A DNA stretch of 64,000 nucleotides from Candidatus Woesearchaeota archaeon (GTDB lineage: Archaea; Nanobdellota; Nanobdellia; Tiddalikarchaeales; Tiddalikarchaeaceae). A model generated the notes under the pieces. That model was given only the letters and a program-made list of their open reading frames with translations. It did not search any database and was not told the origin of the DNA. The stretch lies in the NCBI GenBank assembly GCA_964457955.1, contig CAYWEY010000003.1, forward strand, positions 14,439-78,438, written 5' to 3'. Every line of letters starts with the position of its first letter. Within the stretch, counting starts at the first letter, position 1. Shown here in pieces: positions 3,537-55,417 of the stretch. The position numbers were made by a program, and so were the translations under genes.

Positions 3537-3982
3537 AAATGAATGATTCTCTGAAAAATTATCTTGAGTGTGAAGAATTGCTTAATGATTTTTTTAAAGA
3601 ATTAGGTTACTGCAGGAGTGATTGTTTCTTGGATTATGATGTTCGTTGCTGTAAAAAAAATTATTTCGGGACTAAAAGATTGCTTGAAGAGTTGCATAAT
3701 GAACGTTTAAAGAAGTACGGTATTCCTGCTGAGAAAATAAGAGAATGCTCTTATCATACTGAGAAAGGTTGTTTACTTGAAACTCATAAATCTCCCACTT
3801 GTCTTGCATGGGTTTGTAATTCATTGGAAGAATATTTACACTCTATTGGTGTTGAATACTATCTTGTGGATATACGTTTTTCTCTTATGCAAATATTAAG
3901 AAATGAACTTGGTCAAGATGAGATAATTTGCTTTAAGCAAAATATTAAAAATATGACTAAAAAAATTAAAAGTTTAAAATGA
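3527..3982 (+). CDS. YkgJ-family (CxxCxxCC) Cys-rich protein, paralog 2
   Basis: NYLECEELLN..CRSDC..CC and YHTEKGCLLETHKSPTCLAWVC shared with neighbours. Confidence 0.55.
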   Translation: MYLKMNDSLKNYLECEELLNDFFKELGYCRSDCFLDYDVRCCKKNYFGTKRLLEELHNERLKKYGIPAEKIRECSYHTEKGCLLETHKSPTCLAWVCNSLEEYLHSIGVEYYLVDIRFSLMQILRNELGQDEIICFKQNIKNMTKKIKSLK

Positions 3983-4422
3983 ATGAAGAAAAATTAAGGA
4001 AGTGTTTGGATAATTATCTTGAGTGTGAAGAATTGCTTAATAAATTATTTAAAAAAATTAATCTTTGCCCGTCTTTCTGCAATTATAATCATTGCTGCAG
4101 AGTAGATATGTGGAAATATGATGATTTTGATGCATACTATTATTTACATAAGGAAAGGGTTGAAAAATACGGCAATCCTCCTGAAGACTGGTTAGATTCT
4201 TTCAAAGGAAAGTGCTGGTATCTTAAAAAAGATGGGTGTGCGTTACAAACTCATAAACCAGTATGGTGTCTTTCCCATATTTGTTTTGAAAAACAAATCA
4301 AAATAAATTATGACAAAAACGAAGTGCAGGATAAACTTATTAAAATTATCAGAAATATGATGCCAGAAGAAGAAACACATCTTTTTAAAGAAAAAATTAA
4401 GAAATTTATTAAGAAAATATAA
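3979..4422 (+). CDS. YkgJ-family (CxxCxxCC) Cys-rich protein, paralog 3
   Basis: NYLECEELLN..CPSFCNYNHCC and GCALQTHKPVWCLSHIC; 4-nt overlap with paralog 2. Confidence 0.55.
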   Translation: MNEEKLRKCLDNYLECEELLNKLFKKINLCPSFCNYNHCCRVDMWKYDDFDAYYYLHKERVEKYGNPPEDWLDSFKGKCWYLKKDGCALQTHKPVWCLSHICFEKQIKINYDKNEVQDKLIKIIRNMMPEEETHLFKEKIKKFIKKI

Positions 4423-8542: not shown

Positions 8543-9551
8543 TCAAGTATTAAGAACCCACGTTTTTTTTAAGGATTGTGAGAATTTTTTAAATACTATC
8601 TTTCTTTTATTTTCTGAGAATTGTCCTAAGAAATTGAAACAGAAAATTACATCATACTTGTTCTTAAGTTTCTCTTTGAAAACGTCTTTTACTTCAAAAT
8701 TAACTTTAGTTTTAATATCATTTCTCATCACTATTTTTTTATTCTTAGGAACTTCAAAGAATCTTGAGCATGCATCAATTTCAGAACCAAAATCTGCCAG
8801 AGGATCTTTTCTGACAATAGTTGATAAATCATATATTCCTTTTTCTGCTCTTTTAATACATGTTGGTGAATATGTCAAAAGCATCAATAGTGTAACTCTG
8901 TAAGTTTTCTGATTCATTAATCATTGCTATTGAATAAGGTTCTCTTCCTTCAGAACAAGGAAAGGAAAGAATTTTCACTTTTTTTCTATTTTTGAGAACA
9001 GGAATAATACTTTTTTTATAGTACTCTAATGATGGAACATCTCTAAAAAATCTGGTGTGCTTTGAAACTGCTTTGTTCCTAATAATGTGCTTATAATTCA
9101 GTTTCTTATTTTTTATTTCCTCCCAATTCTTATCAATATACTCAAATAGTTCTTTCTTTGTACGATTTTTCTTCCATGATTCTTCGAAAACACTCATTAC
9201 AAAAACAGGATTAAAACTTTTAACGAATTCCTTAAATTTTTCTTTTGATAAAGGCTCTTCCTTATTAATCAAACAAAGAGTCTTAATATCTCCTTCAACA
9301 AATTCTTCACTAAGAGTCTTATCAAATAATTCTTTTGCTTCTTTTTTTAATAGTTTAAATAATTCTTTTAATTTATCTTTATTTTCAAGCAAGTTCTTTT
9401 CTAATATTTCTAATTGTTTTTTAGTGAAATTATTTTTTTTCCCTATTTTATTAATAAACCCTATTGCTTTATTCAGACTTTCTTCGTCTCTTATGCGGAG
9501 GAATTCATTAATTATTATTAATTTTTTCTTGTAATTTTTGATATTCTTCAT
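8543..9551 (-). pseudogene. CheR-type SAM-dependent methyltransferase split by a frameshift (ORFs 8853-9551 and 8543-8917)
   Basis: Upstream ORF ends HTRFFRDVPSLEYY...KILSFPCSEGREPYSIAM...IDAFDIF; downstream ORF continues CIKRAEKGIY...YDVIFCFNFLGQF. Together these give the full CheR methyltransferase domain across a -1 shift near 8880-8900. N-terminal 150 aa is a K/E-rich coiled coil. Confidence 0.45.
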
Positions 9552-9591: not shown

Positions 9592-10254
9592 TTGTTTTTT
9601 ATAAAAAAGTTTATGGTTTCTGATAAAATCTGGGTTTTGATACCTGTTTATAATGAGGAAAGAACAATAAGGGAAGTTGTTTCAAGGACTAAAGAAGTAA
9701 TTCCAAACATATTAATCGTTAATGATGGAAGCACTGATAACACGAACAATATTCTGAACAATATAAAAGATATATGCTTGATTAATATTAGAGAAAATTC
9801 TGGTAAGGCAAATGCTTTGAAAAAAGGTATGGATTATTTGAGAGAAAAAGATGCTGATAAAGTTGTAGTTATTGATGCTGATTTGCAGCATTTACCTGAA
9901 GAAATACCGCGTCTCTTAAATGCTGATGCAGATATTGTTGTTGGAGTGAGAGAAGACAGAGAATCTATGCCTTTAATAAGAAAAATTGGAAACTTTCTTG
10001 CTGCAAAAATAGTGAGTATGCAGACAGGTTTGGACTGCAATGATCCTCAAAGCGGTTTCAGAGCTTTTTCGAAAAAAGCAGTGAATGAATTATCCTTTAA
10101 TGGTGAAAATTTTAATATTGAGAAAAAGGTTTTGTTGGAACTTTCTGAAAAAGATTTAACATATGCAGAGGTTCCAATATCATGCATTTATGAAGAGGAT
10201 GCCCGAGAATCATACTATGATTTTAAAGACTTGTTGGAATTCTTTGGGGAATAG
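9592..10254 (+). CDS. family 2 glycosyltransferase (dolichyl-phosphate mannose/glucose synthase-like)
   Basis: VLIPVYNEE, VNDGSTDNT, VIDADLQH motifs. Confidence 0.75.
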   Translation: MFFIKKFMVSDKIWVLIPVYNEERTIREVVSRTKEVIPNILIVNDGSTDNTNNILNNIKDICLINIRENSGKANALKKGMDYLREKDADKVVVIDADLQHLPEEIPRLLNADADIVVGVREDRESMPLIRKIGNFLAAKIVSMQTGLDCNDPQSGFRAFSKKAVNELSFNGENFNIEKKVLLELSEKDLTYAEVPISCIYEEDARESYYDFKDLLEFFGE

Positions 10255-11687: not shown

Positions 11688-11726
11688 AAATCCTATTTCT
11701 GGATTCAATAGTATAAAAATTATATC

Positions 11727-11895
11727 GGGCTCGAGGGGATTTGAACCCCCGACCTACTGCTTAATCCCCTAAATATGTTCATAGTAGGTCAGTGTCTTCA
11801 TATGATTTCATGAGTAAAATCTCAGTTGACCTTCTTCTAATCATAATTTTTTAGGTTAGGAGGCAGTCGCTCTATCCAAACTGAGCTACGAGCCC
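11727..11895 (-). tRNA. tRNA-Arg (anticodon CCT) with a 95-nt intron at the canonical 37/38 position
   Basis: 5' exon 11857-11895 (GGGCUCGUAGCUCAGUUUGGAUAGAGCGACUGCCUCCUA) and 3' exon 11727-11761 (AGCAGUAGGUCGGGGGUUCAAAUCCCCUCGAGCCC) join to a 74-nt cloverleaf; intron 11762-11856. Confidence 0.7.
11789..11844 (-). ncRNA. candidate C/D-box sRNA embedded in the tRNA-Arg(CCT) intron
   Basis: In tRNA orientation: AUGAUUA (C-like), 12 nt, CUGA (D'), 10 nt, AUGAAAU (weak C'), 12 nt, CUGA (D). 56 nt, typical archaeal C/D sRNA size; the C box deviates from RUGAUGA. Confidence 0.35.
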
Positions 11896-12518: not shown

Positions 12519-13145
12519 TTGCTGAGAATATTACTATTCATGCTAGAATTAATTCAGGGATTGAAATTCTTTGAGAATAATGGTTTTAGTCTTGCAGAAT
12601 ATTATGTATGCAAAAATAAGAAGCAGTTATTAAGTTCTTTTAAGAAGATGAATCCTCCTGTTGTTATGAAAATAAGCAGTTCAGAACATTCTCATAAGAC
12701 TGAAATTGGTGGTGTTATTACAGGAATTAAGACCAAGGATGAATTGTTGAATAAATATGAAGAACTCAGTGAAATTAGTGATAATATTATTCTTCAGAAC
12801 CAGATAAGTGGAGTGGAAGTGATTATTGGAGTGCATAATGACCCTGTTTTTAATCAAGTCTTAATGTTTGGTGTTGGAGGAATATTTGTTGAATTATTCA
12901 AAGATGTGAGTTTCCGCAAGTGTCCAATAAATTTAGGTGATGCTGGGCAGATGATTAATGAAATAAAAAGTTCAGAACTTCTCAAAGGATACCGTGGCAG
13001 AAAAGTTAACAGGAGAAAATTAAAAAAATTATTAGTAAGGATTTCAGAACTGGCTGTGGAAGAAACTATTGATAGTTTGGACCTTAATCCTGTTATTCTT
13101 ACAAAAAAAGATTATTTTATTGTTGATGTGCGGTTAAGCCAGTAA
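12519..13145 (+). CDS. acetyl-CoA synthetase (ADP-forming) beta subunit / ATP-grasp domain
   Basis: PVVMKISSSEHSHKTEIGGV, GVHNDPVFNQVLMFGVGGIFVELFKDVSFR, LDLNPV: the ACD beta pattern. Confidence 0.65.
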   Translation: MLRILLFMLELIQGLKFFENNGFSLAEYYVCKNKKQLLSSFKKMNPPVVMKISSSEHSHKTEIGGVITGIKTKDELLNKYEELSEISDNIILQNQISGVEVIIGVHNDPVFNQVLMFGVGGIFVELFKDVSFRKCPINLGDAGQMINEIKSSELLKGYRGRKVNRRKLKKLLVRISELAVEETIDSLDLNPVILTKKDYFIVDVRLSQ

Positions 13146-17327: not shown

Positions 17328-18641
17328 TTATTTGAATATTTTTGAAATTATTTCTGCAAACTCAAAAGGTTCTTCAAAATTAATGATGTTGTTTTTTTCT
17401 AGAATCTTTCTCCCTTCAATCACACTGTCTCCCCCCATAAAACATGTTATGACTTTCTTGTTTTTTTCTTTGAAATTCACTAATGCTTTTGCTGTTTTTT
17501 TAGGTTCAGTCATGTCTTGGGGAGTTAATATGCATAATAAAATATCATAAAAATCTTTTTTTTCTAAAATCTCCATACTTTTTTCATATCGTTCTGCAGG
17601 AGCATCTCCAACAACATCAATAGGATTATTGTGGCTCCAGTTATTAGGAAGAAACTTGTTCAATTTTTTTTTTACTTTTTCAGGGAGAAGAGGTATTTTC
17701 ATCCCAAAGTTTTCACAAGCATCACTTGCAAGAACACCTGGTCCCCCTGCATTAGATAATATGCATACTTTATTTCCTTTTAGTCTTCCGTACTTCTCAT
17801 AAACTTCTGCGAGTTTAAACATTTCTTTCAGATTATTTACTTCAATCGCACCACCCTGCTTGAATATTCCGTTGTATACTTTTTCTGAACCTGCAAGACT
17901 GCCGGTATGACTGCTTGCTGCTCTCACACCTGCTTTTGATTTTCCTGCCTTAAGAACAATAATGGGTTTTTTGCAATTCTTCAAGCTTTTCAGGAATCTA
18001 TCTCCATCTTTCACTCCTTCAATATAAAGACAGATTATTTTAGTATTATCATCTTTTCCTAAATAATTAATAACATGTCCAAAGTTAGTGTTAATCATGT
18101 TACCCATACTGATGAATTTTGAGAATCCTCTTTTTTTCTTAATCGCTTCATCCAGTACAGCAACACCTAATGCTCCTGACTGTGATACGAAAGCTGTGGG
18201 AGAATATTCTGGTATTCCTTTAAAAAAACTTGCGTTCATCCTGTTCTGAGTGTTTATTATTCCCAGACAATTAGGGCCAATTATATTAATATCGTGTTTT
18301 TCGGTTTTTTTAAGAACTTTATTACTTAATTCTTCATTACCAACTTCTGAAAATCCCGCGCTTATGATAACAACATTCTTAATATTTTTTTCTCCGCACT
18401 CATCAATAATGTTGGGAACGAACTTAGCAGGAATACAGACAATTACTAAGTCAATACTGTCAGAGTAATCCTTAATATTTTTATATGCTTTAACTCCCTG
18501 AACTTTCTTACTATCAATATTTATTGGTATTGTCTTAAATCCTTCTTTTTTCAGGTTTTTGAAAACAACATAACCTACTTTTCCTTCAGTATTGCTGGCA
18601 CCAATTACAGCAATAGTTTCGGGATTAAAGAATTCATCCAT
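17328..18641 (-). CDS. acetyl-CoA synthetase (ADP-forming) alpha subunit (CoA-binding + succinyl-CoA-synthetase-like domains)
   Basis: PETIAVIGASNTEGKVGY, IIGPNCLGIINT, SQSGALG motifs. Confidence 0.75.
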   Translation of the reverse strand: MDEFFNPETIAVIGASNTEGKVGYVVFKNLKKEGFKTIPINIDSKKVQGVKAYKNIKDYSDSIDLVIVCIPAKFVPNIIDECGEKNIKNVVIISAGFSEVGNEELSNKVLKKTEKHDINIIGPNCLGIINTQNRMNASFFKGIPEYSPTAFVSQSGALGVAVLDEAIKKKRGFSKFISMGNMINTNFGHVINYLGKDDNTKIICLYIEGVKDGDRFLKSLKNCKKPIIVLKAGKSKAGVRAASSHTGSLAGSEKVYNGIFKQGGAIEVNNLKEMFKLAEVYEKYGRLKGNKVCILSNAGGPGVLASDACENFGMKIPLLPEKVKKKLNKFLPNNWSHNNPIDVVGDAPAERYEKSMEILEKKDFYDILLCILTPQDMTEPKKTAKALVNFKEKNKKVITCFMGGDSVIEGRKILEKNNIINFEEPFEFAEIISKIFK

Positions 18642-18887: not shown

Positions 18888-19082
18888 CTATTTAATGTAA
18901 TTGTTTATTTTCTTAACACATCTTTCTGCTAAATCATGCCTGTCTGCTTCTTCATATAATTTTTTCGCATCTTCAAGAAGTTTAACAGCATAATCCTTTT
19001 CTTCCTTTTTTGCTTTTTTCTCGAGTTTAAGAGCTTCTTTAACTAATTCTTTATCATGATTCAGTATACTGCACAGTGTCAT
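18888..19082 (-). CDS. small K/E-rich hypothetical protein
   Basis: 64 aa; preceded by conserved promoter-like motif shared with ORF 19636-19869. Confidence 0.35.
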   Translation of the reverse strand: MTLCSILNHDKELVKEALKLEKKAKKEEKDYAVKLLEDAKKLYEEADRHDLAERCVKKINNYIK

Positions 19083-19123
19083 GACTAATATAAAGAAAAA
19101 AACAACATTAAAAATGTTACTAT
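19083..19123 (-). promoter_or_regulatory. putative BRE/TATA promoter (copy A of a duplicated ~40-nt motif) for a leaderless transcript
   Basis: Minus strand ATAGTAACATTTTTAATGTTGTTTTTTTCTTTATATTAGTC directly before ATG; TTTTTAAT at -32 to -25. Confidence 0.3.
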
Positions 19124-19161
19124 TAATTAGTGACTATTTATTTAATATATAAATATAAGTT

Positions 19162-19435
19162 GTGGTTGGTTAGTACCCTGCCTTCTGTACAACCCCTATT
19201 AACTTTGAATAGTAGGGTGTTGGCAACATTCTACTAAGCGCACCAGTGTGCTTGCACTTCTCAACAGGTTAAGAGATTTTCCATCCCAAATTCATGAAAC
19301 CTCAATTCAAATATCATCGTGCTCATGAAAGGGTGTTTTTCTGCTTCTCATTAACAAATCCTTAAGATTAATTGTCTGTTTCTCAGTGGGCAGAGGTTCC
19401 CCAGCAATCAGCCGTGAGTTGCCTAAACCAACCAC
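19162..19435. ncRNA. unidentified GC-enriched structured RNA candidate (~274 nt)
   Basis: ~42% GC island in ~28% GC DNA; perfect 10-bp terminal helix GTGGTTGGTT/AACCAACCAC plus several internal hairpins; no ORF. Could not be matched to 5S, SRP RNA or RNase P RNA consensus by eye. Confidence 0.3.
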
Positions 19436-19635
19436 TAAATAATAATATCTAAAAATAGACTTATAAATATTTTCCTGCAAAAAAAAACCAGAACCATACT
19501 AAAATTTTCATGAATTATTATCCAAAAGAAGCCCGCTTAGTATCATTATCTCTTCACCATAAATCTCATAACACTACCTCATCATATTTTCTTATCTCTT
19601 CCCCAATATTATGGAATTCAACAATTATAGAAAAT

Positions 19636-19869
19636 TTAGTGATTTTCGTATTTGTTAATTAAATCTCTTAATTCATCCCACTTTTTTTTAACATACAATT
19701 TACCAAAAGTTCTTTTATCCTCTTCACTCCAGCCTTTTGTTACAATTGTTCGTAAAGTTATGAATTCTTTATACTTATTGAAATCTCCAACTTTATTTAT
19801 AATGTATTCATCTTTCTTAAATTTCTTGAAATCCTTTACATATTTTTTTATTTTATCAACAAGTTTCAT
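19636..19869 (-). CDS. small K/E-rich hypothetical protein
   Basis: 77 aa; preceded by copy B of the promoter-like motif. Confidence 0.35.
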   Translation of the reverse strand: MKLVDKIKKYVKDFKKFKKDEYIINKVGDFNKYKEFITLRTIVTKGWSEEDKRTFGKLYVKKKWDELRDLINKYENH

Positions 19870-19915
19870 ATTAGAAGAATAAAAGAAAAAAACACACTTA
19901 AAAATATTACTATCT
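19870..19915 (-). promoter_or_regulatory. putative BRE/TATA promoter (copy B of duplicated motif)
   Basis: AAAGAAAAAAACACACTTAAAAATATTACTAT matches copy A in ~35/40 positions. Confidence 0.3.
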
Positions 19916-19989
19916 AGTAGTAAAAAAAAGTATTGAATATCAATTGCATTGGTGGATTAAAAAAACACGACTTCTCCTGTATAACACAA

Positions 19990-22935
19990 ATTATTTGTGA
20001 GTTTCAGCTTATTAGTGAACGCGGGCTTAACACGTCGTTGCCTTCGTGCTTACACCCCGTTTCTATCTAACCCATCATTTAATGGAAAGCTTCAGACGAT
20101 GCCTCTTTTTGCGGAGGGCTTCGAGCTTAGATGCTTTCAGCTCTTATCCCATTGGGACGTAGCTGCCCAGCGTGCCTTGTCAGACAACTGGTAGACCAGT
20201 GGTCCCGGAGGATCGTTCCTCTCGTACTCAACCCTCCTTCCACTCAGGCATCGAACACTTCCAGTAGATATAAGCCGAACTGAGTCACCTCGTTCTGAAC
20301 CCAGCTCACGATCCCTTTTAATCGGTGAACACCCGCACCCTTGGCCGCTTGTGTACGGCCAGGATAGAGAGAGCCGACATCGATGAAGCAAGCCCCGCCG
20401 TAGATGCATTCTCCCGGGCGGGACAACTCTGTTATCCCCAGGGTAGCTTTTCTGTCAGACGTATTCCTCAAAAAAAGGATATATACGCGTTCGCTAAACC
20501 ACACTTTCGTGTCAGAACTTCTCGCTGTGCGAAGTCCTGTCAGGCCAGCTTTTGCTTTTGCACTCTACTCCGGATTTCTGTCCCGGATGAGCTGACCTTA
20601 GGGCGCCGGTGATAAATTTTCGCCGGCGTGCCACCCCAGCCAAACTGCCCGACAACAGGTGTCCCAAGAGATAAATCTCAAGGTAAGCATTATCATCCAT
20701 AATTGACAGTGTCCCATTGACGGCTCAGCAACACCCGAAAGTATTGCGTCGAAGCCTTCTGTCTACGCTTCGAATTACGGGTAATAACGCAGCTGCAGGC
20801 TGCAGTAAAGTTCCTGGGGTCTTCTCATCCCACTGGAAGTCCCCGGCTTCTGCACCGGGCAAGTGTATTCACAGGGTTCAAGTTTGGGACAGTAGGAACC
20901 TAGTTACGTCGTTCGCAAAGCCACTAATTAGATGGCAAGGCATTGCGCTACCATAAGAAGGTCATAGTTACCTCCGTCGTTTACCAGTCCTTAGGCCCGT
21001 TGAACCGGGATTTCAGATACTGGCACTGGACAGACGTCACGGGTTATACAAGACGTTTCCGTTTAGCAACCCGCTATGTTTTTGTTAAACAGTCCGGTTC
21101 CCCTAGTCACTGCGCCCAGCACTCGCAGTCTTAAGACTACGAACGCTGAGACCCCTTCTCCCGAAGTTACGGGGCGAATTTGCCGAGTTCCCTAAACTTG
21201 ATTACACCCTACAGGCCTTAGGCTACTCACCCAGGACACCTGTGTCGGTTCTGGGTACGGTTAATCAGAGTCCTTGAAGATGAGATTTTCACGGGCTCCA
21301 GGAATTAATTGAACTCGAGTACACGAGCTGTTCTCAGTATTAATCCATTTCTCCTCATTACGAGACTCCATGGACTTGTACTGATTAAATAACACGACAG
21401 TGTTACTCAACCTATCCCGAAGCGTCTCTCAATCCTCCTTGCGTTGCCGCACGTATCTGATTAGTACAGGAATATTAACCTGTTTCCTTTTCCCCACTTA
21501 GCAGTTAAGCCGTGAGTTAAGACCGACTAACTCTTCGCTGACGAGCGGTGCGAAGAAACCCTTGTCCTTACGGCCATGTGGATTCTCACCACACTATGAT
21601 GCTACTACCGGCAAGATACTCAAACCCAAAACGGTCCATGCAAACTCACGTTCGCACTTCTAACCACTCAGGTCGCCTTCCTACCCGGACACGTCCTACA
21701 ACGTGTCCCCTAAAGTCTCGGTAATTGGCTTAGCCCCGTCCATTTACAGCGCCACCAACCTTGATGAGTAAGCTATTACGCACTTATTATAGGTTTGCTG
21801 CTTCTAAGCCTACCTCCTCACTGTCTCTGGTTGATGACAACCTCATTTGCACTTAGTCAATATTTTGGGACCTTAACTTTAGTCTGGGTTGTTCCCCTCT
21901 CGAACATAAGGCTTACCCCTATGCTCCGACTCCCACCATCTCAGATATTGCAGCATTCGGAGTTTGACTTGGGATCGGGAAACTTTTGTCTCCTCGCATG
22001 CCAAATCAGTATCTCTACCTCTGCAACCATCTCCGGTGAGGCTAGACTGTGGCCTAATTTGGAAGGAACCAGCTATCGCCGAACACGATTGGCTTTTCAC
22101 CCCTATTCCCAGCTCTCGGGAACGCCTTGCTCACAGTACCCCTACAGTCCTCCACGAACTGGAAAGTCCGCTTCAACTTGTCCAGGAATAGATCGTTCGG
22201 CTTCGGGTATTAAAGCAGTAACTTCAGGCGCTATTCACACCCTGCCCCTCGCATGCTGTGGGCATAATTGCTTTCGCTTCGGCTTCACACTAAACGTGTT
22301 TAACCTCGCCACTACCTTAAATTCCTTGCCTCTTTGTCCAAAAGGAACACTGCAACACTCGAAGTGCCGCAGCCTCCTGTGACCATTAGGTTTCAGGATC
22401 TTTTAACTCCCTTTTACGGGTTCTTTTCAACTTTCCCTCACGGTACTTGTACGCTATCGGTATCCTAACCTATTTAGGGTTGGAAGTTTTTGACTCCCAT
22501 CTTCTTAGAGGAATACCATCCCCTAATACTCTGGGAACTGGATATCATTCTTTTTACTTCCTTTACGGGACTGTCACCCTCTATGGTGCTCTATTCCAAG
22601 AGACTTTAAGTCGTAAAAACAATGAATGTTTCCAGCCCAAAACAGCACATCTCACTCATGTCACCATGACTGATTCACTTTGCCCTATTCCCCTTTCGAT
22701 CGACTCTAATAAGGGAATCCCTAACTTGGTTTCTCTTCCTGCGGGTACTAAGATGATTCAATTCTCCGCGTTCCTCCTGCCAAAAGCAGTAACCCCGAAG
22801 GGTTCGGATTCCTATTCGGGAATTCCTGGCTCAAAGGCTCCATGCGCCTCCCCAGGACTTATCGCAGCTTGGCACGCCCTTCATCAGGGTTAGGATCCAA
22901 GTCATCCACCTAATGGCGTCTTTACTCCACATCAT
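19990..22935 (-). rRNA. rrl: 23S (LSU) ribosomal RNA
   Basis: Minus strand 5' region GGUGGAUGACUUGG...CCCUGAUGAAGGGCGUGCCAAGCUGCGAUAAG (22861-22910), sarcin-ricin loop AGUACGAGAGGAACGAUC (20215-20232), GC-rich ~2.95 kb with no coding potential; ends approximate (+/-40 nt). Confidence 0.9.
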
Positions 22936-25539: not shown

Positions 25540-26526
25540 ATGAAAATAAAGAACAAATTGTTATTGATTATTTTAATGATTTTTTTAGGAATATTCATAA
25601 TTTATTTTTCAATACCCTTCCTTGACTTAATAATAATAAGTGCATTGATTTCTTTTGCACTCCAGCCTGTTAAGAAAAAACTTGAAGAAAAAATAAGTGA
25701 TGAAACTACTGTTGTTTTGTTATCAACATTATTCAGTTTTGCGATAATAATAATATTTTCTTATTTCTTCTTCAATACTGTATTATCAGGTATTAAAATA
25801 TTCAGTGATTTAGTTAGTGGTAAGGAAGAAATACAATTAATAAACAGGACATTCACGATTTTTGAATCATATCAAATATCCGAACCCTTGACTGCTGAAG
25901 GAATAAAAAGCTTAGTGAACTTAGTTCAAAGACTTATATTATTAACTCCCCGTTTTATTCTAAGTATATTCGTACTTTTATTATTCACTTATTACTTTAA
26001 TAAGAACGGTAAGGATATAAAGAATAAATTAGAGTCAATAATTCCTCCAGGAGAGATTGTTTATTTCAGAAAATTTTTTCGGAGATCTAAGGAAATGATG
26101 AAAGGAGTTTTTATAGTTCAATTATCTGGGGCTTTAAGCCAGTCTTTCCTTATACTTGTTTTTTTGCTTATACTTAATGTTCCTTTTGCAATAGAATTCT
26201 CATTCCTTGGATTCATATTATCATTATTCGGGATGTCATCAAGTTTTGTAATAATTTTTTTAATAATTTATTATGCTTTAAGTTCGAACTATTTATATGT
26301 TATTATACTCATGGTCTTATTCTTAATCATAATAAATATTGATGATATAGTGAAGCCCTTAATTGCTAAAAGAGTAATGAATGCTAATCCATTACTATTA
26401 TTAACAGGAATAATTGGAGGAGCAGTGAGTTTTGGAGCAACAGGATTCATAATAGGTCCATTAATCGCAGTAATTCTCCAGTCATCAATAGAGGTGTTGT
26501 TTGAAGAAAATGAGGTTAGTGTTTGA
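25540..26526 (+). CDS. AI-2E family (PerM/UPF0118) membrane transporter
   Basis: 328 aa, ~8 TM helices, C-terminal GGAVSFGATGFIIGPLIAVIL motif. Confidence 0.5.
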   Translation: MKIKNKLLLIILMIFLGIFIIYFSIPFLDLIIISALISFALQPVKKKLEEKISDETTVVLLSTLFSFAIIIIFSYFFFNTVLSGIKIFSDLVSGKEEIQLINRTFTIFESYQISEPLTAEGIKSLVNLVQRLILLTPRFILSIFVLLLFTYYFNKNGKDIKNKLESIIPPGEIVYFRKFFRRSKEMMKGVFIVQLSGALSQSFLILVFLLILNVPFAIEFSFLGFILSLFGMSSSFVIIFLIIYYALSSNYLYVIILMVLFLIIINIDDIVKPLIAKRVMNANPLLLLTGIIGGAVSFGATGFIIGPLIAVILQSSIEVLFEENEVSV

Positions 26527-26884
26527 AAAAGCATTAAGAGAAGAAGAGAAGATTAAAGACATTGTCAGCGTTCTTGAATGGGATTATATAAAAACCGAGT
26601 ATGTTAAATGTGTGTATTCAGGTAATAGTAGTTCAAAAGCAATCGCGCGTATCTGGAGCACTCCCAGAATATTCTCTTATGCTTTTGGAATAATTCCTAT
26701 GTATGTTATTGAATTAATCAGAAAAAAATATGATAAACTAAGTGAATCTGAAAAGAATAAAGTACTAATCCATGAATTAATGCATATTCCTAAAACTTTT
26801 AGCGGAGCATTAAGATCACACAGGTTTCATAAAGAAATAGACAGAGTATACAATAATTATGTTTCTCTGAAGAAAAAAATTTAA
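26501..26884 (+). CDS. putative zinc metallopeptidase (HExxH; YgjP/SprT-like)
   Basis: LIHELMHIP...SHRFHKE. Confidence 0.4.
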   Translation: MKKMRLVFEKALREEEKIKDIVSVLEWDYIKTEYVKCVYSGNSSSKAIARIWSTPRIFSYAFGIIPMYVIELIRKKYDKLSESEKNKVLIHELMHIPKTFSGALRSHRFHKEIDRVYNNYVSLKKKI

Positions 26885-34269: not shown

Positions 34270-35553
34270 TTATTTTGGAGTTGTACTTCCCCACTTGTCA
34301 AGAGCTTTTTTTAATTCTTTATGCTTTTCTGCGTATTCTTCTACACTGATGTCTTTCATTATTGCAGTTATTGATTGTCTTAATGCTTTGGCTCCATTAT
34401 GTGTTCCATCAGGATGACCATGAACTCCTCCTCCAGCCTGTATTAATATATTGGAGCCCAATAAGTCAATAAGCCTCTTTATTATTCCCGGATGAAGTCC
34501 TCCACTGCAAGTTCCGAATACAGGTTTTGTACCATACCATTCCTGCTCTAATAATAATTTTCCTTCAGTGTTTGACATTAATGACGTCTTTGTATGATTG
34601 TCACTCACTTCTTTTTTGTCACCCACCAGTTTACCAAGTCCACCTATATGAAGGTTGTCAACACCTATTATTCTTGCTATTTCAGCAATCACTTTCATAC
34701 TCATCCCATGTTTTGGGTTTCTGTCAAAAGCTGCGTGGAATGCGCGGTGAGCATGTATTGCAAGCCCTAATTCTTCGCATTTATCTCTTATAGTCTGGAC
34801 TCCTCCCCACCCAACAGTAAGTATATCAACCATAACGTATTCATTATCATATTCTTTAACAAGTTCTGCTCTTCTTTTCATTTCTTCAGTTTCTGCAGTA
34901 ATGTTCACAAAATAACTTTTTGTTTCTCCTGTCTCTTTCTCTGCTTTCTCCCTCATCTTCATACTTAAGTCAAGTCTTTTCTTAAACTTGTTAAAATTTT
35001 GTGATGTCAAGTTTTCATCATCTTTCAAGAAATCAATTCCTCCAGTCCATGCTTTATAACCAACATCAGCATGTTCTTCTGAATAATACCCTACTTTTGG
35101 TTTAGGAACTGTTGCTGTAAGTGGGCGCTTATCAACTTTCATGAAATCCCTTACACCATTTATTCCAAACTGGGGTCCTTTGAAGCTCTTAATCAATTTT
35201 TTAGGCCAATGAATATCTTCAATTCTTAATCCGTCAATTGCTTTCATTCCAAAAATATTTCCAGCAATACTGCTCAAGATTTGAGGCATATTCCCTTCCT
35301 CGAATAATTCAAATGGGTAAGCTACTTTAACAAAATCCTTATCTATATCATAACAGTGTGCTGATAATTTAGTGATATGCTCAGGAACTCTTAATCCTGC
35401 CCATGTCCCATTGCTAGATTCGCTTGCTACGCGGGCAGCAGCTTTCTCCATGCTAAATCCTTTTGCAGGCGTAATCCTGAATAAGACTATTAAATCATCT
35501 TTTGCAGGCGCATAATTCATGTCAAGAAAATCTTCATACTTTATCGTTATCAT
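34270..35553 (-). CDS. rbcL: ribulose-1,5-bisphosphate carboxylase/oxygenase, form III (archaeal type)
   Basis: GLKDDENL (carbamylated Lys region), HIGGLGKLVG, GGGVHGHPDG; 427 aa. Confidence 0.9.
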   Translation of the reverse strand: MITIKYEDFLDMNYAPAKDDLIVLFRITPAKGFSMEKAAARVASESSNGTWAGLRVPEHITKLSAHCYDIDKDFVKVAYPFELFEEGNMPQILSSIAGNIFGMKAIDGLRIEDIHWPKKLIKSFKGPQFGINGVRDFMKVDKRPLTATVPKPKVGYYSEEHADVGYKAWTGGIDFLKDDENLTSQNFNKFKKRLDLSMKMREKAEKETGETKSYFVNITAETEEMKRRAELVKEYDNEYVMVDILTVGWGGVQTIRDKCEELGLAIHAHRAFHAAFDRNPKHGMSMKVIAEIARIIGVDNLHIGGLGKLVGDKKEVSDNHTKTSLMSNTEGKLLLEQEWYGTKPVFGTCSGGLHPGIIKRLIDLLGSNILIQAGGGVHGHPDGTHNGAKALRQSITAIMKDISVEEYAEKHKELKKALDKWGSTTPK

Positions 35554-51300: not shown

Positions 51301-52298
51301 TCAACCAAGTTTCTCATTATAGAAACAATTTGGATCTGAATTAAATAATGATCCTGTTTTATAGAATGAACTTGCTCTGCATCCCCCACAAAAATATTTA
51401 GAATTACAAGAGCCACAAGGGCCATTAAATGAAGTTCTATTCCTTAATCTTTTCAAAACTTTATTATTAAACCAGATATCATTTAATGATTCATTGAAAA
51501 CATTGGCCAAAACGTATTTAATGAAAGGACAAGGCAAAACATCACCATTAGAACAAATATAAATTGATGCCACTCCTGCAATACATCCCCCAGTTATTCC
51601 TTTTCTTTTATTACTTTCAAGTAGTTTAAATCTATCATCATCAACCAAAAATAAAAGAACATTAGAGCATTTGATCAGTTTATTATTTTTTTTAATTTTT
51701 GATATCTTCTTAAGAGCTTTTTGCAATTCTTTTGGATTTAATGTTTCATTTTCAAAGGAATTGTTAACCGGGACCAGACGATTGATTCCTATTTCAACAT
51801 TCATTTCAGAAGCAAATTTATCTAATTCATCTAATGAATTAATCAATGATTTATGTAATGCTGCTTGAAGTGTAACCTTAATGTTATTATTTTTAAGTAA
51901 TTCAATTTTACTAATCAAATCTGACAAATAATTCTCTCTAAAACAAGATTCATCCCCTGGAGGCACATCAATACTCAATTGAATTGAATCAAATACTTTT
52001 AATTGGTTAATATTATTTTCATTTATCAACAAACCATTAGTCATCAAGATTAATTTAGGAAAATCTTTTTGCTTAGCATATATAGCATATTCAAATAATT
52101 CTTTAACCATTAATGGCTCCCCCCCCCAGTAAATACTAACCTATAAACTTCAAGTTCTTTTAATTCATCAATCAAACTAAAAACTTTTTCAGGATTTAAT
52201 TTTTTTACAGGATTACGTCTAACATAACAATGCTTACAATCAAGATTGCATTCATTTGTTAATTCTATTTCAACTATATGAAGCCCTTTATTTTCCAT
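51301..52298 (-). CDS. radical SAM / SPASM-domain enzyme (paralog 3), interrupted by a frameshift in a C9 run
   Basis: N-terminal ORF (52110-52298) ELTNECNLDCKHCY (CxxxCxxC)...VFTGGG stops inside a C9 run; C-terminal ORF (51301-52110) has SPASM cysteines CIAGVASIYICSNGDVLPC...CGSCNSKYFCGGCRA. Confidence 0.6.
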
Positions 52299-53352
52299 CT
52301 CTCAAACCATAAATAACACAATAAGGGTCACCTCTAAAAGGATCACCTAATAATTTATCCGCAAAAGCCCTACACCCACCTGTGCATAATCTCAATAAAT
52401 CACATTTACTACACTTATCTTCTTTTGGGATGAAATAACGAAACTTTTTCATAACACTTGAGTCTTTCCAAACTTTTAATAAATCATCAGTAAGCGCATT
52501 ACCACACAAAAACTTTTCTGATTTGAAATAATTACACGGAACAATATACCCACTAGCAGTTATAACCATTTTAAATCTCCCAGCCATACAAAAAGGAATT
52601 TTTATTCTATCAAGTTCGTTTAAAAAAATTAAAGCATGATTTGGTTTGATTTTAATATCTAATTTTTTAATTTTTTGGTATATGGTATAAAACTCTCTCC
52701 ATTCTTTTTTAGATAAAATATATTTATGTCTTGATTCACCACAAGGGATCATATCTAATAAATGTAATTCCATATAATCTCTTTTTTTAACAAAAGAAGC
52801 TAATTCAAAAATTTCCTTATAATTTAATTTATTAACAACACATGCGATTGATATTTTATTTTTATCAAAATACTTCTCTAACAATTCTAAAGAATCAAAC
52901 AATTTTTTAAGTAAATCCTTCCCTCCTCTTATTTCATCCTGTTTATTTAAACTATCGATATTAACATTAATTTTATCAAAACCAATTTCTCCAATCCTTT
53001 TAGCAATTAATTTATTAATTAATAATAAGTTTGTATTTAGATGAACTTTTATTCCATTTCTTTTTAAAGAATCCGCAAGTTCTAAAAGAATTTCCGCTCT
53101 AATCAATGGTTCACCTCCAGAAAATGAAACATACAAAGGATTTAATTGATTAATGATTTTTTTATTAATAATTCTTAACTCATCATTATTTAATTCTCTT
53201 TTTTTAAAACAATTATCTTTATTATAACAATAAACACAATCAAGATTGCATTTGTTAGTTAAATCAAATTGTACTTGTGCAGGTCTAGTAAATAAATATT
53301 CAAAATCAGATAATTTCTTAGAATTAGTTAAATCAAATTTTGGATTCATCAA
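52288..53352 (-). CDS. radical SAM / SPASM-domain enzyme (paralog 2)
   Basis: FDLTNKCNLDCVYCYN (CxxxCxxC), SFSGGEPL, SPASM CMAGRFKMVITASGYIVPC...CSKCDLLRLCTGGCRA. Confidence 0.75.
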   Translation of the reverse strand: MMNPKFDLTNSKKLSDFEYLFTRPAQVQFDLTNKCNLDCVYCYNKDNCFKKRELNNDELRIINKKIINQLNPLYVSFSGGEPLIRAEILLELADSLKRNGIKVHLNTNLLLINKLIAKRIGEIGFDKINVNIDSLNKQDEIRGGKDLLKKLFDSLELLEKYFDKNKISIACVVNKLNYKEIFELASFVKKRDYMELHLLDMIPCGESRHKYILSKKEWREFYTIYQKIKKLDIKIKPNHALIFLNELDRIKIPFCMAGRFKMVITASGYIVPCNYFKSEKFLCGNALTDDLLKVWKDSSVMKKFRYFIPKEDKCSKCDLLRLCTGGCRAFADKLLGDPFRGDPYCVIYGLRDGK

Positions 53353-53390
53353 TTAAATCCAAGAGAATATTTATTCTTAAATATTTCTAA

Positions 53391-53492
53391 CTAATCTCCA
53401 TTTAATTCACAAACAGAACTCAAAACTTCTTCAACAGATAATTTCCATGAGTCTTCATTTGAATCTTCTGTTTTTTTAGTTGCTTCTTCCAT
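53391..53492 (-). CDS. candidate precursor peptide (33 aa; below ORF-track cutoff): MEEATKKTEDSNEDSWKLSVEEVLSSVCELNGD
   Basis: ATG..TAG ORF in the 165-nt gap between the methyltransferase and rSAM paralog 2, same strand; acidic leader-like N-half, single Cys near C-terminus. Confidence 0.3.
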   Translation of the reverse strand: MEEATKKTEDSNEDSWKLSVEEVLSSVCELNGD

Positions 53493-53517
53493 AAACAAGT
53501 GTAATTACTATCAATAT

Positions 53518-54294
53518 TTATAAACTTTTTCTTAAAATGTAATATTGCCTGCTAAGGTGTTTTTGTTCATCCCAATATATCTTGGATTCATCAATTATTT
53601 CCAACACTTCAAAACCAATATCGTTAACAATACTTTCGATCTCACTTGACGAATAACCTCGTTCCACATGTTTTTCTTTAATTTCTTTTTCACCTTTTTT
53701 TAGTATTATATCCAAACACCATATATTTTCTTCTCCACTGAAATTAAATGTGATATTATTCCTCCCTATATTAAAAATTCTTTGTGGTGCATTACTTGAC
53801 ACACTTACATGCTCTTTTGTATTCATATCAAATATGAAATAAGCTCCTTTGTTTAAATGGTCATAGACCTTCTTAAAAACCTTTTTTAAATCGTCAATAG
53901 ATAATAAATAATTAAGTGAATCATAAAATGATACTGCCAGATCAAATTTTTTAGGAATATTAAAAGTTCTTAAGTCACTGATTACAAAATTAATCTTATC
54001 ATTATATGCTTTAAGTTTTTCTTTTGCGAGATTAATCATATATTTTGATTTATCAACACCTACTACATTAAAATCTAACTCTAATAACATCTTAGAAATC
54101 GTCCCTGTCCCACAAGCAAGATCTATTGCATTTCCTTTAATACTATACTTTTTAACTTGTTCTTTAATAAGATCATTCCATTTATCGTATTTCGATGAAG
54201 TCATTAATTCATCATAAAGATTTGAGAATTCAATTCCATAATTATTTGGTTGTTTCATTTTGATGACTGTATGAAAACCTACAGAAACCTCCAC
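53518..54294 (-). CDS. class I SAM-dependent methyltransferase (Methyltransf_11/25-like)
   Basis: IDLACGTGTISKML motif I, VGVDKS, LAVSFYDSLNY. Confidence 0.7.
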   Translation of the reverse strand: MEVSVGFHTVIKMKQPNNYGIEFSNLYDELMTSSKYDKWNDLIKEQVKKYSIKGNAIDLACGTGTISKMLLELDFNVVGVDKSKYMINLAKEKLKAYNDKINFVISDLRTFNIPKKFDLAVSFYDSLNYLLSIDDLKKVFKKVYDHLNKGAYFIFDMNTKEHVSVSSNAPQRIFNIGRNNITFNFSGEENIWCLDIILKKGEKEIKEKHVERGYSSSEIESIVNDIGFEVLEIIDESKIYWDEQKHLSRQYYILRKSL

Positions 54295-55417
54295 ATCTTA
54301 TTTCATCCTTATTGATATCACACTCTTCACAAAGCGGAATTAAAAATTTTTCTGTCTCTTCTAATAAATCAGAAATTACTCTTTCAGGAATATATTCATT
54401 TAAATTACCTAATTTTGAGTTTCTATCCATCACACAAGGATATAAATATCCTTTAACATCTATCGATATCCTCTTTCTAATACCACACCCATACCATCTT
54501 GATTCGGGTATTGTTTTTTTAGTTGCTAAAAATCCGTTACGGACGTGTTTATTACTTAAATATTGTTTCAATACAATATGAGCATCTTTTGAATTAATTT
54601 TATTAAACACAGCATTTCCTGTTTTAATTGCAGGTCTCAAATGAAGAGTGGTATTAAAATTTTTGGCCAAATTTATAAGTTTTGGAACATCTGAATAATT
54701 GTGGTCTCCAAGAGTAGTTACTAAATATTCTGGGATATTGTTCTCACATAATTTTTCTAAACCAATCAACAAATCATCAAATAAACCTTTTCTTTTACGA
54801 ATCGTATCATGGTTTTTTCCATAACCATCTATGCTTACAGCAAGACCAAGACTATTTTTTAATGTTTTAAAAAAGTCTTCATTTTTATTTTTTAATTGAC
54901 CTCCATTTGTAACAATATAATAATTTCTTCCATTATTATCTATTCTTTTAAGAATTTCTTGCAAATCATTTCTAAGAAGAGGTTCTCCCCCAGTTACTTC
55001 AAAAACCATCAAACCTAAATCACACAATTTATCAACTCTTTCTAATAAATCCTTTTTACTTGGCGAACCTTTATTCAAATCTTTTTTATGATAACAAGCT
55101 TTACAATCACAATCACAATTTGATGTTGCTTCTAACAAAACTTGTGAAGGCAAGAGATCGTTATCAACCTTAAAAGTTTTAACATAATTATTATTGTTCT
55201 CAATAATTATCCCGCTTTGATATAATCTAACTAAATCTTTTGTTGAAACTTGTGAGAAGTCATTATTTAACAATGATTTTGTTGTTTTTTTATCAACCCA
55301 AAAAAATGATGCATAAAGACCAGGAGTTACTATTGTACTTCCTGAAGGTTCTTGTCTTATTATTGTCTTTTCATCGAATCCTAATTTATAAAAATCAATA
55401 TTTTTAATTATATCCAA
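54242..55417 (-). CDS. radical SAM / SPASM-domain enzyme (paralog 1) with ~100-aa N-terminal extension (possible RRE-like substrate-binding domain)
   Basis: LLEATSNCDCDCKACY (CxxxCxxC), VTGGEPLL, SPASM WYGCGIRKRISIDVKGYLYPC...CEEC...CGGFC; 53-nt overlap with methyltransferase. Confidence 0.75.
   Translation of the reverse strand: MDIIKNIDFYKLGFDEKTIIRQEPSGSTIVTPGLYASFFWVDKKTTKSLLNNDFSQVSTKDLVRLYQSGIIIENNNNYVKTFKVDNDLLPSQVLLEATSNCDCDCKACYHKKDLNKGSPSKKDLLERVDKLCDLGLMVFEVTGGEPLLRNDLQEILKRIDNNGRNYYIVTNGGQLKNKNEDFFKTLKNSLGLAVSIDGYGKNHDTIRKRKGLFDDLLIGLEKLCENNIPEYLVTTLGDHNYSDVPKLINLAKNFNTTLHLRPAIKTGNAVFNKINSKDAHIVLKQYLSNKHVRNGFLATKKTIPESRWYGCGIRKRISIDVKGYLYPCVMDRNSKLGNLNEYIPERVISDLLEETEKFLIPLCEECDINKDEIRCGGFCRFSYSHQNETTK

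Follow-up and report, generated by a model that had tools for sequence, protein, structure and literature searches.

An RNase P RNA gene of reduced architecture, with a compensated variant of helix P4, on a contig of a DPANN archaeon

The stretch of DNA analysed here (64,000 nucleotides, hereafter the window) contains on its minus strand, at 19163..19434, a 272-nt gene for the RNA component of RNase P, the enzyme responsible for trimming tRNA precursors at their 5′ ends. In an Rfam scan of the whole 64-kb window on both strands, the archaeal family RF00373 (RNaseP_arch; clan CL00002) matches this segment on the minus strand alone, at model positions 1–288, with 85.8 bits (E 2.7e-22); as the gathering score is 84 bits, the element clears it by 1.8 bits. 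The Rfam clan filter, which keeps the best of overlapping related families, retained the archaeal model at this locus. The assignment of these coordinates to the RNase P RNA (RPR) draws on RF00373, on homologues found with a second covariance model (R1) and on covariation, and one further G-C pair of helix P1 may stretch the gene to 19162–19435. A preliminary description of this DNA had proposed a structured non-coding RNA here and a comparison with Rfam covariance models; the full-length match, above the gathering score, bears the proposal out. Its estimate of ~42% GC is likewise close to the 42.7% measured for 19162–19435, which compares with 30.8% for the whole window and 22–30% for the flanks.

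The RPR gene lies downstream of a 23S rRNA gene on the same strand (19992–22935, minus strand; RF02540). The preliminary description placed the element immediately downstream of that gene; this is so with respect to transcription, but the two are separated by 557 nt, and a lysine-rich 77-aa ORF (19636–19869, minus strand), a putative gene that has no Pfam match, lies between the 3′ end of the 23S gene and the RPR promoter. At Rfam gathering scores, the 64-kb window yielded neither a 16S nor a 5S gene, and the rRNA genes are therefore unlinked. The absence of ORFs from the element had also been reported. This is nearly right, the sole qualification being a mechanically called 57-aa ORF with a TTG start (19307–19480, minus strand), which overlaps the RPR gene and is not credible. 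On the downstream side, the RPR gene is followed by a 64-aa ORF (18888–19082, minus strand) and by genes for Sec61beta and for the alpha subunit of ADP-forming acetyl-CoA synthetase (ACD). A search of 5.8 billion proteins found no homologue of the 64-aa ORF besides itself.

The order RPR, small ORF, Sec61beta, ACD-alpha is kept in Ca. Tiddalikarchaeum anstoanum (L130) and on a metagenome contig (L133). Both were found independently, via a neighbouring protein. A 65-aa ORF (9593–9790) is the positional counterpart of the window 64-aa ORF in L130, and no similarity between the two is detectable. The RPR locus of L130 (9254–9556) scores 45.6 bits with RF00373, well under the gathering score, and is covered by a called 68-aa ORF (9251–9457, plus strand); this call is probably spurious, and the RPR gene there probably unannotated. 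On seven further contigs with ACD-alpha homologues (L128, L129, L131, L132 and L134–L136), no RPR was found near that gene. The ACD of the window is encoded in two parts, alpha (CoA-binding/ligase) and beta (ATP-grasp_5), by genes ~4 kb apart, at 12519–13145 (plus strand) and 17328–18641 (minus strand), with a PMT_2 glycosyltransferase gene and two orphan membrane-like ORFs between them; in relatives, a single 378-aa ORF occupies that interval.

Several other features of the window deserve mention. A tRNA gene at 11726–11895 (minus strand; anticodon CCU, Arg; 51.8 bits with Rfam) has a ~97-nt intron in its anticodon loop and was missed by ARAGORN. A RuBisCO large-subunit homologue (34270–35553, minus strand; PF00016 and PF02788) is presumably a form III enzyme, like those of other DPANN archaea. 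The region 51301–55417 (minus strand) encodes two radical-SAM proteins, one of them with a SPASM domain, a SPASM protein without a radical-SAM match and a methyltransferase; this cluster may serve in the maturation of a peptide or cofactor. An ORF that adjoins an AI-2E transporter gene (26501–26884, plus strand) matches PF18894, "putative phage metallopeptidase," with E 2.3e-18. Pfam searches of the ~68 ORFs in the 64-kb window identified no genes for the RNase P proteins POP5, RPP30, RPP21, RPP29 and L7Ae, as expected for a genome fragment. The gene content, with its presumed form III RuBisCO, its split ACD and its numerous orphan ORFs, fits a DPANN archaeon.

Helices of the RPR were assigned from the Rfam alignment together with our own reading; all coordinates that follow are on the minus strand, and the window coordinate equals 19435 minus the RNA position. 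P1 pairs RNA 1–9 (UGGUUGGUU; 19426..19434) with RNA 264–272 (19163–19171). With the additional G-C pair, it corresponds to the perfect 10-bp terminal helix noted previously (GTGGTTGGTT at 19162–19171 and AACCAACCAC at 19426–19435). P2, as given by the Rfam alignment, joins RNA 12–17 (GGCAAC; 19418..19423) to RNA 208–213 (GUUGCC; 19222–19227), and P3 is a hairpin of only 4 bp (RNA 21–33, with 21–24 paired to 30–33; 19402..19414). CR-I and the 5′ strand of P4 occupy RNA 33–46 (GGGGAACCUCUGCC; 19389..19402); CR-V and the 3′ strand of P4 occupy RNA 247–261 (ACAGAAGGCAGGGUA; 19174..19188), the CR-V motif being ACAGAAGG. The P4 pseudoknot (RNA 38–40 and 42–46 with 253–260) is formed by A38–C40 and C42–C46 with G253–U260, and U41 is bulged.

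P5 consists of RNA 47–50 (19385..19388) and 177–180 (19255–19258), and P7 of RNA 55–59 (19376..19380) and 168–172 (19263–19267). The sole hairpin between P7 and P10 is P9 (RNA 66–78, AAUC-UUAAG-GAUU, with 66–69 paired to 75–78; 19357..19369), whose CUUAAGG loop is common to the window RPR and to homologues L054, L102 and L120–L127; the P8 columns of the Rfam alignment are deleted, so that P8 is absent. P10/11 (RNA 80–89 with 159–167) leads to CR-II (RNA 90–101, AGCAGAAAAACA; 19334..19345), P12 (RNA 102–150; 19285..19333) and CR-III (RNA 151–158, AUGGAAAA; 19277..19284). P15 is a minimal hairpin (RNA 184–195, GCAC-ACUG-GUGC; 19240..19251; helix 14 in the covariation table) followed by CR-IV (RNA 196–208, GCUUAGUAGAAUG; 19227..19239). 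P6, P16, P17 and the internal L15 loop are absent, 3 nt standing for 36 consensus positions in the Rfam alignment. Finally, a hairpin at the position of P19 (RNA 215–246; 19189..19220) lies between the 3′ strands of P2 and P4 as a 29-nt insertion relative to RF00373; the CCCTATT/AATAGTAGGG hairpin of the preliminary description, at ~19189–19220, is this element.

P12 contains a K-turn motif at RNA 116–134 (19301–19319) which, as read from the sequence, is of the box-C/D-like type: C116-G134, a G117-A118-U119 loop, sheared G120·A133 and A121·G132 pairs and U122·U131, beyond which a stem of 2 bp is capped by a UUGA loop. It agrees with the Rfam consensus GAuGAU...uGAgg. In the 47-sequence alignment described below (A4), its AUGA is kept in 37–40 of ~41 rows and its GA in 36–37 of 37 rows.

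Compared with RF00373, the window RPR thus has P1–P5, P7, P9–P12, P15, the bulged-U pseudoknot of P4 and the family's CR-II, CR-III, CR-IV and CR-V motifs, all of which were found. It departs from the family in lacking P8 and P6/P16/P17, in the hairpin inserted between P2 and P4, and in CR-I, which reads GGAACCUCU in place of the consensus GGAAAGUCC, with compensating changes on the partner strand.

Homologues were sought in two ways. A pattern scan, GCAAG-N(6-36)-TAGTNGAATG-N(24-54)-ACAGAAGG, representing a short P15 and an insertion at the P19 position, was run on one genome per GTDB species and matched at least 119 loci. Among the matches listed, ~95 belong to Woese-, Pace-, Nano- or Micrarchaeota or to Iainarchaeum; the remaining loci are chance matches in bacteria. 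Covariance model R1, built from the window RNA alone, recovered at least 75 homologues at E≤0.01, of which at least 47 are full length at E≤1e-6 and come from DPANN genomes. The conservation of GCAAG, TAGTNGAATG (CR-IV) and ACAGAAGG (CR-V) among these homologues is, for most rows, imposed by the search pattern. With nhmmer, the window RNA yielded weak similarity only (best E 3e-8), and sequence alone therefore fails to recover the family. Two intermediate procedures were replaced or dropped: a plain MAFFT alignment of 13 RPRs was unreliable at the 5′ end and gave way to covariance-model-guided alignments, and a heuristic script for finding P1 produced many wrong 5′ ends.

The preliminary description had suggested a comparative search for covariation. 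In the 47-sequence alignment, which, like the others behind our pair counts, is fitted to the model structure, standard pairs fill 94.7% of pair cells, compared with 64.5% in shuffles, none of 500 of which reaches the observed value; when partners are slid, 30–42% of cells are paired. Both sides change in 66 of the 74 pairs, and each of the 16 helices is paired in 86.7–99.7% of cells. Double changes affect all nine pairs of P1 (95.6% of cells paired), five of the six of P2 and all 11 of the P19-position hairpin (96.1% and 91.7% of cells paired). In the alignment so fitted, covariation also supports P3, P5, P7, P9, P10/11, P12 and P15 of the window RPR.

Many DPANN relatives (e.g., L063) retain P8 though their P15 is already short. 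Within the group of the window RPR, RF00373 scores straddle the gathering threshold (L123, 109.5 bits; L124, 76; L054, 72.6; L122, 68.5, in addition to the window and L130 values given above), and annotation can therefore easily overlook such genes. No open-access paper describing the structure of RNase P RNA from DPANN archaea turned up in our literature search.

The window RPR has a variant P4. Relative to the CR-I consensus GAGGAAAGUCC, the window sequence GGGGAACCUCU keeps GGAA, the bulged U and the next C, and has C, C in place of A, G; overall, it departs from the consensus at G34, C39, C40 and U43. C39 and C40, which replace the usual A and G, are compensated by G259 and G258 (C39-G259 and C40-G258). 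On the 5′ side of the bulged U, the two pairs are thus C-G and C-G, where A-U (or G-C) followed by G-C is usual. Typical DPANN homologues have GAGGAAAGUCC...GGCUUA or GGAAGGUCC...GGCCUA; the window has GGGGAACCUCUGCC with GGCAGGGUA. In the 47 sequences, P4 is paired in 99.7% of cells, with double changes in four of its eight pairs. The counts for alignment columns 140/727 are AU 30, GC 14, CG 1 and GU 1, and those for columns 141/726 are GC 43, CG 1 and UA 1; among the 47 R1 homologues, taken from the matches listed, the window alone has the C-G/C-G state. The preliminary description had reported that no universal P4 signature could be found. A variant P4 is present on the minus strand; the signature was missed because the gene lies on that strand and because CR-I reads GGGGAACCUCUGCC instead of GAGGAAAGUCCCC, the partner being changed as well (GGCAGGGU).

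Relatives of the window RPR place this variant in context. When metagenomes were scanned for relatives whose P9 loop is CUUAAGG, eight contigs were returned, all of which carry GGAAG(U/C)UCUGCC with GGCAG(G/A)CUA, and the position beside the bulged U is therefore already a pyrimidine in the wider group. L133 has the same CC/GG variant as the window (CR-I/CR-V: GAGGAACCUCUGCUCAC/ACAAAAAGCAGGGUAU in L133 and GGGGAACCUCUGCCCAC/ACAGAAGGCAGGGUAC in the window), and L130 has a near-variant in which C-G is accompanied by U·G (GAGGAACUUCUGCUCAC/ACAGAAAGCAGGGUAU). As the P4 variant is compensated and common to L133 and L130, it is a lineage trait and not damage. The L133 RPR (3937–4225, plus strand), the nearest relative of the window RPR, has a further peculiarity in CR-V, which reads ACAAAAAG where ACAGAAGG is otherwise invariant; the changes fall in the J19/4–P4 junction near the active site.

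Upstream of the RPR gene are promoter-like BRE (AGGAAAA, 19470–19476) and TATA (TTTATAA, 19461–19467) boxes, both on the minus strand and both read by eye; the TATA box ends 25 nt before G19435. This arrangement is that of an archaeal BRE/TATA promoter. Comparable purine-rich and A/T boxes precede 13 other RPRs at the same distance (-35 to -25), and most of these RPRs are followed by T-runs. Directly after the 3′ end of the window RPR there is no clean oligo-T terminator, the first T5 lying ~48 nt downstream (19110–19114). A scan for sigma-70 promoters and terminators was set aside as unsuited to an archaeon.

Taken as a whole, the element almost certainly encodes the RNase P RNA subunit of a DPANN archaeon of low GC content that is related to Ca. 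Tiddalikarchaeum. A decaying, non-functional RPR pseudogene, eroded in a reduced symbiont that either makes no use of RNase P (cf. Nanoarchaeum equitans) or relies on a protein-only enzyme, would account for an Rfam score barely over the gathering score, for the differences at several near-invariant CR-I positions and for the lack of RNase P protein genes in the 64-kb window; we nevertheless consider it very unlikely. All helices are intact, and the P4 changes are compensated and common to L133 and L130, which represent distinct organisms, their RPRs having ~66–69% identity to that of the window. The promoter motif and the gene order are conserved as well. Moreover, each of the five tRNA genes listed exceeds the gathering score of the tRNA model, and their precursors would need 5′ processing if leadered; the protein-only enzyme HARP is reported to be absent from DPANN (PMC6380272).

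That the plus strand instead encodes another structured RNA, whether SRP RNA, a lineage-specific sRNA or an aberrant 5S rRNA, is extremely improbable compared with an RNase P RNA on the minus strand, even though the size is compatible with SRP RNA and the plus strand folds better than its dinucleotide shuffles (z -2.9, or -2.87 to two decimals). The minus strand does so too (z -2.3); since both strands outperform their shuffles, folding energy cannot decide between them. The plus-strand reading adopted in the preliminary description is contradicted by the RF00373 covariance model, which matches the minus strand only. In a permissive Rfam scan of 18900–20100 at E≤10, this match was the only one to any family on either strand, with none to SRP, 5S or other credible families, so that of the two candidates suggested earlier, SRP RNA and a small RNase P RNA, the second was right. 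The 5S-like patch CCAUCCCAAAUUCAUGAAAC proves to be the complement of the 3′ strand of P12 plus CR-III (GUUUCAUGAAUUUGGGAUGG). Furthermore, the G-U pairs and the single-stranded motifs (ACAGAA, GCAAG and AGUNGAAUG) are sensible on the minus strand only.

Equally improbable is a trailer or spacer of the 23S transcription unit, processed from pre-rRNA and not an independent gene, since the location of the element on the strand of the 23S gene, 557 nt downstream, is set against a BRE/TATA motif at the expected distance from the RPR 5′ end, homologues in L130 and L133 that adjoin the same downstream genes (with no LSU rRNA found on L130 by an Rfam scan, and only protein-coding genes called around and upstream of the RPR on L133, as judged from gene calls and not from an Rfam scan), and a sequence that is, regardless of its setting, a full-length RNase P RNA. 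Because the RPRs of L130 and L133 hold the same gene block without a 23S gene upstream, the 23S adjacency in the window is incidental, and the link to the 23S gene implied by the preliminary description is not supported.

As an RNase P RNA gene, the element can be compared with the known structural types. Type M RNAs lack P8 and P6/P16/P17, have a short P15 without L15 and lack P19 (PMC2858038, Table 3). The window RPR resembles type M, known from Methanococcales and Archaeoglobus, in the absence of P8, P6, P16 and P17 and in its short P15 without L15; unlike type M, it has a covarying 11-bp hairpin at the P19 position and comes from a DPANN lineage. In our opinion, it is therefore best described as type-M-like and not as a member of type M, and, given the lineage, its reduction is probably independent of that of type M. 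It is likely that its activity depends on proteins, as does that of the Methanocaldococcus jannaschii RPR (PMC13022451).

The lack of P6/P17 and the presence of P19 between P2 and P4 are features that the window RPR has in common with eukaryotic nuclear RNAs (type E, e.g., human H1 RNA and yeast RPR1). In contrast to the helix-loop-helix of type E, its P3 is a plain 4-bp hairpin, and its P12 contains a K-turn in the archaeal manner. Eukaryotic nuclear RNase P RNA is not known to have a bacterial-type L15 loop for CCA pairing, which the window RPR also lacks. The RNAs of type T (Thermoproteaceae), in which most of the specificity domain is missing, are, like the window RPR, reduced archaeal RPRs; the window RPR differs in keeping P7, P9, P10/11, P12 and CR-II/CR-III. 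Type T RNase P RNA is mentioned in PMC4919917.

We infer the expression, protein partners and catalysis of the window RPR largely by comparison with characterised archaeal RNase P (PMC3001054, PMC13022451, PMC4919917). A BRE/TATA promoter of its own probably drives transcription of the RNA on the minus strand. The catalytic domain of the RNA comprises P1–P5, the minimal P15 hairpin, the P19-position hairpin and the P4 pseudoknot with the bulged U, and its reduced specificity domain P7, the single P9 hairpin, P10/11 and P12 with the K-turn. By comparison with characterised archaeal enzymes, L7Ae would bind the P12 K-turn, and POP5-RPP30 and RPP21-RPP29 would join the complex. The resulting RNP would cut 5′ leaders off pre-tRNAs by metal-ion catalysis centred on P4. 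As there is no L15 loop, there would be no pairing with the 3′-CCA of the tRNA; recognition would depend on the proteins and on the CR-II/CR-III module, which recognises the T-loop. The RNA would probably be inactive without proteins, like type M and eukaryotic RNAs.

The RPR of the window is an ordinary housekeeping gene in the slimmed-down form typical of tiny DPANN archaea, and the value of its identification lies mainly in annotation, no new biological question being opened. It is nonetheless an essential ribozyme gene that went unrecognised in an AT-rich DPANN contig and that the standard model barely detects, and genome surveys could wrongly infer the loss of RNA-form RNase P in such lineages. 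Tentatively, and with some doubt on our part, the RPRs of the window, L133 and L130 may form a distinct subtype whose reduction is type-M-like (P8 absent, P15 minimal), whose P19 hairpin is eukaryote-like and whose P4 is remodelled (C-G with C-G or U·G), and which is divergent enough for Rfam to miss members, as the L130 score illustrates. Should this subtype be real, annotation of these DPANN lineages would systematically under-report RNase P RNA, and two near-invariant residues of CR-I, A and G, would be replaceable in nature as long as the pairing is kept. The compensated change at two highly conserved P4 positions, by the catalytic bulged U, constitutes a natural mutational experiment, and so does the presence of a P19 hairpin on a type-M-like core. 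These two features could inform the design of minimal ribozymes and our understanding of the reduction of archaeal and eukaryotic RNAs.
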